This document shows, piece by piece, positions 25,530 through 25,695 of a stretch of 64,000 nt of DNA. A program made the translations under genes and the position numbers. Position 1 is the stretch's first letter; the number at the start of each line of letters is the position of its first letter. This DNA is from a virus. Where the stretch lies: IMG/VR virus record IMGVR_UViG_3300029106_000003, positions 1,317 to 65,316 of that record; one strand, given 5' to 3'. The notes below the pieces were generated by a model. It worked only from the letters and a program-made list of their open reading frames with translations. It was not told the origin of the DNA and searched no databases.

Positions 25530-25568
25530 AAAAAAATAGTCTGCGTAGCAATGTAGCCAGCAGACTAT
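25530..25568 (-). terminator. Strong intrinsic terminator inside the leader of the head operon
   Basis: Minus strand ATAGTCTGC-15 nt loop-GCAGACTAT followed by TTTTTTTG; 18 nt upstream of the scaffold ATG and ~90 nt downstream of promoter P3. Confidence 0.7.
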
Positions 25569-25657
25569 TCGCATCTTCTTTCAGATGTGCCTCCGCCTAA
25601 ACGGACAAACAGGTGTTTACGACAAGTCGGGTGGCGTACATCTTCATACGCTTTTTG

Positions 25658-25695
25658 CAAATATACAGTAAAGTATATGAATTTCATACACTTTT
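25658..25695 (-). promoter_or_regulatory. Late-type promoter P3 (head block)
   Basis: Minus strand AAAAGTGTATGAAATTCATATACTTT, 4 nt, then TATATTTG. Confidence 0.6.

Follow-up and report, generated by a model that had tools for sequence, protein, structure and literature searches.

We analyzed a 64,000-nt stretch of viral DNA (IMGVR_UViG_3300029106_000003, positions 1,317-65,316; hereafter the window) and focused on a short unit, read on its minus strand, that occupies the gap separating a scaffold-like gene (ATG at 25512) from a RadC-like gene (25920-26357). The unit consists of a promoter overlain by a palindrome, a hairpin at the 5' end of the predicted RNA (P1), a middle part, and a hairpin with a U-tract (T). 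It is most likely a conserved late-operon leader of temperate Bacteroidales siphoviruses that serves as a transcription attenuator. The same promoter, 5' hairpin and terminator hairpin lie directly 5' of the scaffold gene in every relative that we gathered, about eight lineages in all, and comparison of their sequences identifies the leader as a structured, conserved and undescribed RNA family.

An earlier note on this DNA, made from its letters, had placed a palindromic promoter, a leader and a terminator just before the head genes, and each of these elements lies where it was placed, on the minus strand. The -7 element follows the Bacteroidetes sigma-A consensus TAnnTTTG (PMC7366714), and 19 nt 5' of it, within the palindrome, three of the four letters of a -33 TTTG are present (TATG). 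Transcription is predicted to start at ~25654-25652, with the palindrome centred ~28 nt further 5'. The leader length of ~90 nt given in the note needs correction, as the RNA would run for ~85 nt to the hairpin and ~124 nt to the end of the U-tract. The hairpin is larger than the 9 bp first counted, having 10 bp plus a 4-bp upper stem with one bulge. The T7 run itself (25536-25530) and the scaffold ATG 18 nt past the T-run, which is in frame, were confirmed by reading. T folds at -20.5 kcal/mol (z score -5.8, with none of 200 shuffled sequences as stable), P1 at -6.6 kcal/mol (z score -5.0) and the whole leader at -43.9 kcal/mol (z score -3.6).

In a dedicated scan of the window, T was the strongest compact hairpin with a T-run on the gene strand; a generic terminator scan had missed it because of a loop limit of 8 nt. 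It is a one-way element, the opposite strand having no T-run after the hairpin. The other clean hairpins with T-runs on the gene strand (4048, 26713 and 39570) all follow stop codons, and T therefore has the form of the phage's real terminators. Since no promoter fits between T and the ATG, all scaffold, decoration and capsid transcripts must read through T, and the window scan found no terminator between the RadC-like gene and the leader. The genes that T would gate, given in the note as those of the scaffold, decoration, capsid, connector and tail, run from the scaffold to ~20071; the tape-measure gene and the gene of a 1097-amino-acid (aa) tail protein have their own promoters of the same class.

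Relatives were gathered from viral contigs by homology to the scaffold protein and by exact matches to P1, and all are metagenomic contigs; one family member is a prophage in a Parabacteroides genome. Lineage A is that of the window, the scaffold proteins of lineages B-F are 60-75% identical to the window's, and those of lineage G and the single contig L276 are 39-40% identical, with a third-codon identity (31-33%) that is saturated. All lineages have kept the TAnnTTTG box, P1 with the loop UGAAGAUG, and T with the core GUCUGC...GCAGAC. A three-helix structure (P1, T and a middle stem, P2) is paired in 98.5% of cells, as compared with 24-50% when the partners are slid, and five pairs change on both sides, each representing one or two events because only a few lineages are independent. 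When trained on lineages C-G alone, a covariance model recovered window positions 25656-25526 at 70.7 bits (E 9e-15, these E-values being rough), and the match spans all 121 model positions with only P2 broken. No Rfam family was matched at its gathering score by the window or by eight relatives, with only tRNAs and chance-level matches up to an E of 10, and the hairpin sequences were in no paper found in the literature.

The conservation of T extends to what follows its stem. The start codon lies 18-40 nt after T in all lineages, and at least four consecutive U follow the stem in eight of nine lineages despite unrelated downstream sequence (U7-8 in lineage A, U5-8 in G, U3CU5 to U8 in D and E, U4-5 in C, and U4AUCU in B). 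In lineage F the stem is lengthened by CACGG/UCGUG and U5 directly adjoins it. The stem itself shows compensatory changes (A-U to G-C in lineage G; UAG/CUA to UGG/CCA; UUACGG/CCGUAA in L276), and several of its G-U pairs form on the gene strand only. The compensatory changes, the retention of the U-tract while the flanks diverged and the stem extension of lineage F that keeps U5 together indicate that the arrangement is under purifying selection. The retained U-tract and the likeness to the end-of-gene hairpins further point to T being a genuine intrinsic terminator under selection. We consider it probable that T is a real terminator that gates the head genes.

Several other reasons for the conservation of the leader were considered and set aside. 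A cos or pac packaging site had no support, as the contig ends of the relatives are scattered and the G-U changes are strand-specific. A small protein encoded antisense over the leader was rejected since the frames differ between lineages D and G, and a leader peptide starting from the AUG in P1 was rejected since its open reading frame (ORF) can be as short as 7 or as long as 130 codons and differs even within a lineage, T-run length polymorphism shifts its frame, and the substitutions in P1 compensate for pairing but are non-synonymous. An alternative antiterminator helix was likewise rejected, because lineages A, C and G do not share the pairings of a P1 arm with the T loop or those of the P2 region. 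No competing pairing is conserved for either arm of T, so that any regulation would need a trans-acting factor and the switch would not be self-contained.

P1 is under selection as well. Between lineages whose scaffold genes retain a third-codon identity of 31%, eight of eight loop positions and 15 of 18 hairpin positions match, and the three differences keep the pairing. All stem changes preserve the structure (A-U to G-C and G-C to G-U, with C-G or U-A in other copies), as in the variant in which GCGUA/UACGC became GCGUG/CACGU. The TAnnTTTG box lies 6-11 nt 5' of P1 in every lineage. The asymmetric invariant loop, the covarying stem with G-U pairs, and the 5-nt variation in the distance to the -7 box argue that P1 is an RNA element.

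The exact type of P1 occurs once in the window at up to three mismatches, and similar hairpins open other late units. The second match of the covariance model was a P1-like hairpin, UCGUAUGAAGAUAUACGA, at 13306-13289 (minus strand), with a TATCTTTG box 7 nt 5' of it. The 1097-aa tail protein probably starts 7 nt past the hairpin, at the second Met (13281), as PHROG alignments begin at M8. In the tape-measure leader, whose palindrome (18293-18309) also faces the minus strand (unit 18309-18232), a TATATTTG box (18285-18278) is followed by the hairpin GAUGU-GAUGUU-ACAUC (18272-18257). Lineages C and D (L104, 13385-13450; L140, ~9302) have retained the loop of this hairpin, (U)GAUGUU, on covarying stems (CCGUG/CACGG and CCAUG/CAUGG), and we regard it as a second class of promoter-proximal hairpin, with the loop UGAUGUUG. 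Lineage C has a further copy of the P1 class, CCGUAUGAAGAUGUACGG, 3 nt before a gene start. In total, five hairpins with a P1-class loop and at least 5 bp were found in the window versus 0.56 in shuffled sequences, and two of them are promoter-proximal. That P1-class hairpins, with loops UGAAGAUG/A and UGAUGUUG and covarying stems, open other late units is what one would predict for late transcripts that are bound by a single RNA-binding factor in common. The roles that would fit the class are recognition by such a shared factor, generic protection of the 5' end, and control of the adjacent start codon.

An unrelated phage also combines P1 with a terminator. The contig L090 (IMGVR_UViG_3300037070_002158, 7150-7310) has no protein in common with the window over 10 kb, and it carries TAAATTTG, the same -7 box as that of the window, followed after 7 nt by an identical P1, a different canonical terminator (AAAAGCGTTG...CAACGCTTTTTT, U6), a 34-codon ORF and the head genes. 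The family model scores it at 40 bits. This single case links P1 with a terminator before head genes, and it looks like a horizontal transfer of the promoter-hairpin module. P1 does not appear to be a widespread portable module, as outside the family the exact hairpin was found only in L090, whose protein relatives lack it. Matches to P1 in bacterial genomes were chance matches in coding DNA, except for the one Parabacteroides prophage.

The elements, their conservation, their covariation at the RNA level and the lack of another route to the head genes were observed directly, and they fit the following scheme. From a host promoter of the sigma-A type, with the lineage-specific palindrome as its operator, an RNA would start whose first 20 nt fold into the invariant-loop hairpin P1. 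About 85 nt on, a canonical intrinsic terminator would form, which leaves 18 nt up to the scaffold start codon. Polymerase arriving from the unit's own promoter or from the upstream accessory genes would by default stop there and a stable ~124-nt RNA would be released. Expression of the head genes would then need read-through, presumably helped during lytic growth by a trans-acting factor, for which the RNA hairpin P1 would be the best candidate recognition site, following a nut-like logic. Termination in vivo, its regulation and the use of P1 as the handle are the parts of this scheme that we infer from sequence. We give factor-assisted read-through of T, with P1 a likelier handle than the DNA palindrome, somewhat less than an even chance.

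A number of our results weigh against this scheme. Termination and read-through at T are both predictions, the sequence of T is more conserved than a plain terminator needs, and L276 keeps P1 and T with no U-tract. P1 may be a general 5' stabilizer or a translation element, because the units of the hairpins at 13306-13289 and 18272-18257 lack a terminator. The short RNA may itself be a product, as suggested by an antisense-type seed in the leaders of six of the seven other lineages (see below). In addition, searches of ~75 ORFs of the window with PHROGs and Pfam found no member of the Q, N, NusG/UpxY, Mor/C or Ogr families and no dedicated sigma factor. The sole sigma-related match was a sub-threshold region-4 match on a helix-turn-helix (HTH) protein, and the HTH proteins of the window belong to toxin-antitoxin or abortive-infection-like modules. 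Such profile searches may miss a divergent factor, and N-like proteins are too short and too divergent for homology search. The window leader contains no boxA-like sequence. One candidate factor was an 83-aa protein (34210-34461, minus strand) encoded directly 5' of the packaging-operon promoter, the first late promoter. Its family is conserved in Barnesiella and Paraprevotella prophages (71 homologues), and it is confidently modeled as a five-helix bundle (predicted local distance difference test score, pLDDT, 95.6) with no fold match in the PDB. This candidate was dropped, as its cysteines are not conserved and it occurs in an early-type operon in a distant phage.

The leader middle differs among lineages. 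In lineages B, C, D, E and G it consists of the stem P2 (GAACUU/AAGUUC, covarying) enclosing a hairpin, P3, whereas in the window, as determined from the alignment and the model, another middle replaces these stem-loops. The P3 loop, CAUUGCUC(U), holds the seed CAUUGCUCU, which is a perfect 9-11 nt complement of a start-codon box, AGAGCAAUG. The 9-mer CATTGCTCT has seven copies in the window versus 0.63 expected. Six of these are the complement, AGAGCAATG, on the gene strand, and all six lie exactly on start codons of the minus strand, namely those of RadC (26357) and of the ORFs at 35387, 35683, 37465, 37708 and 56325. The lone sense copy (26750-26742) is just past the gene of the large terminase (TerL), directly 5' of a terminator hairpin (26736-26713) with T5, and this element (26750-26708) has 19 nt of perfect complementarity to the RadC start region 370 nt downstream. 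Lineages A, C and G all have a seed-plus-terminator element after TerL, whose terminator stems covary, and start boxes recur on the accessory genes 5' of the leader in every lineage. The seeds and boxes resemble an antisense system whose target is the start-codon box common to these genes, with the boxed genes as the candidate regulon, and they suggest that in most lineages the terminated leader is itself a riboregulator. The window's own leader middle showed no enriched complementarity to window transcripts, with five 10-mers as compared with 8.9 in shuffled sequences. The possibility raised in the earlier note that the leader is a short regulatory RNA thus gained support in the relatives, where a seed loop faces a start box, but not in the window, whose leader has no seed loop; the antisense-regulon reading applies to the relatives and the post-TerL element, not to the window leader.

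We also observed a repeated promoter and 5' untranslated region (UTR), GCTGATAATGAGTATCTTTACAATACTAAAACAA.CAACATTACTAACAATTAAAAGACAAA, at ~26650-26590 and 37775-37715 (minus strand). Each copy precedes a small ORF starting MKAT, similar 5' UTRs stand before accessory genes in other lineages, and the repeat looks like a mobile expression cassette for moron genes.

The palindrome had been proposed as a loading site resembling the Q-binding element (QBE) of lambda. Its core 17-mer has four sites in the window at up to two mismatches (three exact and one with two mismatches) and nine at up to three mismatches versus 0.54 expected, a number reached in none of 100 shuffles. It marks five window promoters, most of them with no nearby terminator, and at some of these the gene starts ~20 nt past the start site and there is no terminator. 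Three of the sites have an identical spacing of 6-7 nt to the -7 box. The palindrome is also lineage-specific, as each related lineage carries another one at the same position (GTATGAAATTCATATAC in lineage A, TTATTTGA-n3-TCAAATAA in B, D and E, and AAAGTGRCGTTTAAAACGYCACTTT in C). With its centre near -28, the palindrome would suit the binding of a dimeric repressor or activator no less well than it would a QBE.

Two further observations were made at the palindrome promoters. The copy at 42090-42106 is followed at longer spacing by TAATTTTG (window 42106-41945, minus strand) and a structured stretch of ~110 nt whose ends pair (GCCCAA...UUGGGC) and which is followed by U7, although its fold has a z score of only -2.1. 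It lies 5' of an anti-repressor (Ant) gene that has its own -7 box, and the stretch may represent a small RNA that belongs to the control region of the anti-repressor, comparable to P22 sar. At the packaging operon, the transcription unit includes two tRNA genes (33427-33647, minus strand), located past the palindrome promoter at 34168 and before the genes for GNAT and amidoligase.

We weighed three other explanations of the unit against factor-assisted read-through. It could be primarily a gene for a small RNA (sRNA) derived from the 5' UTR, whose ~124-nt product, with its 5' end protected by P1, acts in trans while the head genes are expressed by constitutive leak with no antitermination factor. 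The compact relatives indeed have the form of three-hairpin sRNAs (P1, P2/P3 with its 8-nt loop, and the terminator), the P3 seed complements boxes that are found on six window start codons and in every lineage, and the post-TerL element of lineages A, C and G would be a second source of seed and terminator. Bacteroides has sRNAs that derive from 5' UTRs and finish at an intrinsic terminator, as well as sRNAs whose pairing covers a start codon (PMC7366714). However, the window leader has lost P2/P3 and the seed and its middle is not enriched in complementarity, L090 has P1 and a terminator with no seed, and an unregulated strong terminator (-20 kcal/mol, U7) before the most-demanded proteins, the scaffold and capsid, would be costly. 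We think an sRNA gene with a leaky terminator somewhat unlikely as the main explanation, although it is compatible with factor-assisted read-through, as one unit can have both outputs. A post-transcriptional role, in which T terminates little, P1 protects the 5' end and T is a processing, stability or protein-binding element in the 5' UTR of the head mRNA, such as a translational operator for a head protein, would account for both hairpins being conserved in sequence beyond the needs of folding, for T in L276 lacking a U-tract, and for P1-like hairpins standing 3-7 nt before the start codons of two late genes (13306-13289, and one in L088). This explanation is improbable given that eight of nine lineages have the U-tract, including F with its stem extension, that T resembles the end-of-gene terminators, and that L090 has an unrelated canonical terminator in the place of T.

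A lambda-Q-type mechanism, in which a phage protein binds the palindrome, joins polymerase while it pauses near the promoter and lets it pass T, is the explanation that we find hardest to credit. The palindrome does lie between or over the -33 and -7 elements with its centre near -28, which is also how the QBE is placed in lambda PR'. Its lineage specificity has a counterpart in the allele specificity of QBEs, and there is a terminator in the leader. However, no Q-like protein was found with PHROGs or Pfam, and no TAnnTTTG-like sequence that could repeat the -7 element as a sigma-dependent pause signal occurs at 25657-25620, a range that includes the initial 25 nt of the transcript. The perfect dyad points to binding by a symmetric dimer, as is usual for repressors and activators, and the palindrome heads five promoters, some with no terminator, with the anti-repressor copy at a different distance. 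Factor-assisted read-through can also be extended to a phage-wide late programme, in which all late transcripts would begin with the hairpin class (loop UGAWGWUR), one factor would read it and decide read-through of T at the head operon, and the terminated leader or, in the window's lineage, the post-TerL element would act in trans as an antisense RNA that silences morons via AGAGCAAUG. This extension is unlikely as a whole.

Comparison with known systems helps to define what is new in the unit. At lambda PR'-tR', a strong terminator stands no more than ~200 nt past the late promoter, a 6S leader RNA is made by default, and Q provides antitermination. The unit shares with it a terminator between a late promoter and the structural genes and a DNA element between the promoter elements, and the promoter-leader-terminator-head gene topology that the earlier note had likened to PR'-tR' was borne out. 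The analogy with Q was not, since no Q homologue was recognized and no pause signal was seen. The unit further differs in that a perfect dyad is reused at five promoters, there are several late promoters rather than one, and the host is a member of the Bacteroidales with -33/-7 promoters. The lambda N/nut system is also similar, having a short hairpin with a purine-rich conserved loop and a covarying stem near the start of more than one operon with a terminator downstream; the nutL boxB loop GAAGA was taken as a lead and not as a test. Unlike nut, P1 is at the very 5' end, 6-11 nt past the -7 box, and its loop has 6-8 nt and is not a GNRA-like pentaloop. The put element of HK022 consists of two stem-loops of ~65 nt. 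As with put and the Bacillus EAR element, a structured RNA near the promoter could act in cis with no phage protein, which would fit the failure to find a factor. However, only an 18-nt hairpin is universally conserved here, no riboswitch, T-box, put, EAR or other Rfam family was matched at its gathering score, and read-through transcripts from upstream would carry the same RNA.

Other parallels concern late promoters and riboregulators. As at the late promoters of Mu C/Mor and P2 Ogr, several late operons (packaging, head and tail) have a weak upstream element and a common dyad site, but the dyad is near -28, closer to where a repressor or QBE would sit than to the sites of C and Ogr at -43 to -55, and no Mor, C or Ogr homologue was recognized. 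Phage antisense regulators include P22 sar, P1/P7 c4 and lambda OOP, with c4 acting in trans on short repeated boxes, and T4 has a RegB-type early shut-off. The seed system resembles these in potentially silencing phage genes via translation-initiation regions, but differs in that one seed would address at least six accessory genes via a 9-nt start-codon box. The leader also resembles Bacteroides sRNAs such as GibS (PMC7366714) in its TAnnTTTG promoter, its length of ~100-130 nt, its intrinsic terminator and, in the relatives, a seed over start codons; unlike GibS, it is phage-encoded, lies before the head operon and has its seed in a hairpin loop, with the window copy having no seed.

Table. 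Positions of the leader elements and of the palindrome promoters in the window.
Feature	Position	Strand	Description
Palindrome	25670-25695		AAAAGTGTATGAAATTCATATACTTT; core 17-mer 25689-25673, over the -33 position
-7 element	25658-25665	-	TATATTTG; perfect match to Bacteroidetes sigma-A consensus TAnnTTTG
P1	25634-25651	-	GCGUA-UGAAGAUG-UACGC; 5'-terminal RNA hairpin, 1-3 nt after predicted start
Leader middle	25570-25633	-	Lineage-specific, ~64 nt; small hairpins, e.g. CAUCU (25587-25583) with AGAUG (25576-25572)
T hairpin	25534-25569	-	AAUAGUCUGC-UGGC-UACAUU-GCUA-C-GCAGACUAUU; DNA arms AATAGTCTGC...GCAGACTATT
U-tract	25526-25536	-	T7-G-T3; its two leading T could base-pair with the AA at the foot of the stem
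Scaffold-like protein, start codon	25510-25512	-	236 aa, phrog_5824; first head-module gene
Palindrome promoter	34168		Packaging operon
Palindrome promoter	25673		Head operon
Palindrome promoter	18293		Faces tape-measure gene, after plus-strand insert
Palindrome promoter	13350-13324		Diverged copy, before 1097-aa tail gene
Palindrome promoter	42090		Before anti-repressor region, different spacing
Fifth palindrome-class promoter, whole unit	13350-13289	-	Diverged palindrome AAAAGTGCATGTTTTTCATACACTTTT (13350-13324), -7 box TATCTTTG (13321-13314)

The window is a prophage in Barnesiella intestinihominis, as its capsid protein is identical to WP_443757983.1, which is encoded on a 2.66-Mb contig; this corrects the host, which had been given as Bacteroides. 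The capsid protein was found on at least 1000 contigs, and the phage is very common in human gut data. No isolated phage matched the window at the DNA level, and the capsid protein is 24-49% identical to those of uncultured faecal phages and of phages of the Cellulophaga, Porphyromonas and Riemerella type. The minus-strand genes are ordered as replication and methylase genes; portal and minor head protein; defence, toxin-antitoxin and anti-repressor genes; tRNAs; amidoligase, ParB-like protein and large terminase; small accessory genes and RadC; and then the leader, followed by the head genes, the tape measure and the tail genes. Family searches placed a decoration-like gene and then the major head protein after the scaffold. 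A plus-strand insert with an HSDR_N-type protein (18423-20074) interrupts the head-tail operon, and it is among the many defence or counter-defence cargo genes of the prophage, with others at 39617-44232, 48665-49165 and 54426-54962. The cargo includes a Gp49/HTH_3 (HigBA-like) pair, a Doc/Fic-like protein, AbiTii beside an HTH-peptidase M78 protein, a Tad2-like anti-Thoeris domain, and a SocA/Panacea antitoxin domain.

To our knowledge, essentially nothing has been established about how temperate Bacteroidales phages switch on their structural genes, and initiation in this phylum is not led by Shine-Dalgarno sequences. Bacteroidales prophages such as BV01 are notoriously hard to induce (PMC8354205). 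The head-operon unit is probably the switch for head-gene expression, and it is small enough for reporter tests, for which we propose a P1 loop mutant (UGAAGAUG to UGUUCAUG). If read-through is factor-dependent, P1 would be a handle for the first antitermination or late-control factor of the phylum. Should the short RNA be what the unit is for, its family would add a phage-borne riboregulator with a defined target box. Were the phage-wide programme true, it would represent a previously unseen coupling of late transcription to the shut-off of cargo expressed in lysogeny. Either way, the leader represents a new family of structured RNAs that annotation pipelines could use to locate where the head module begins in Bacteroidales phages that have not been cultivated.

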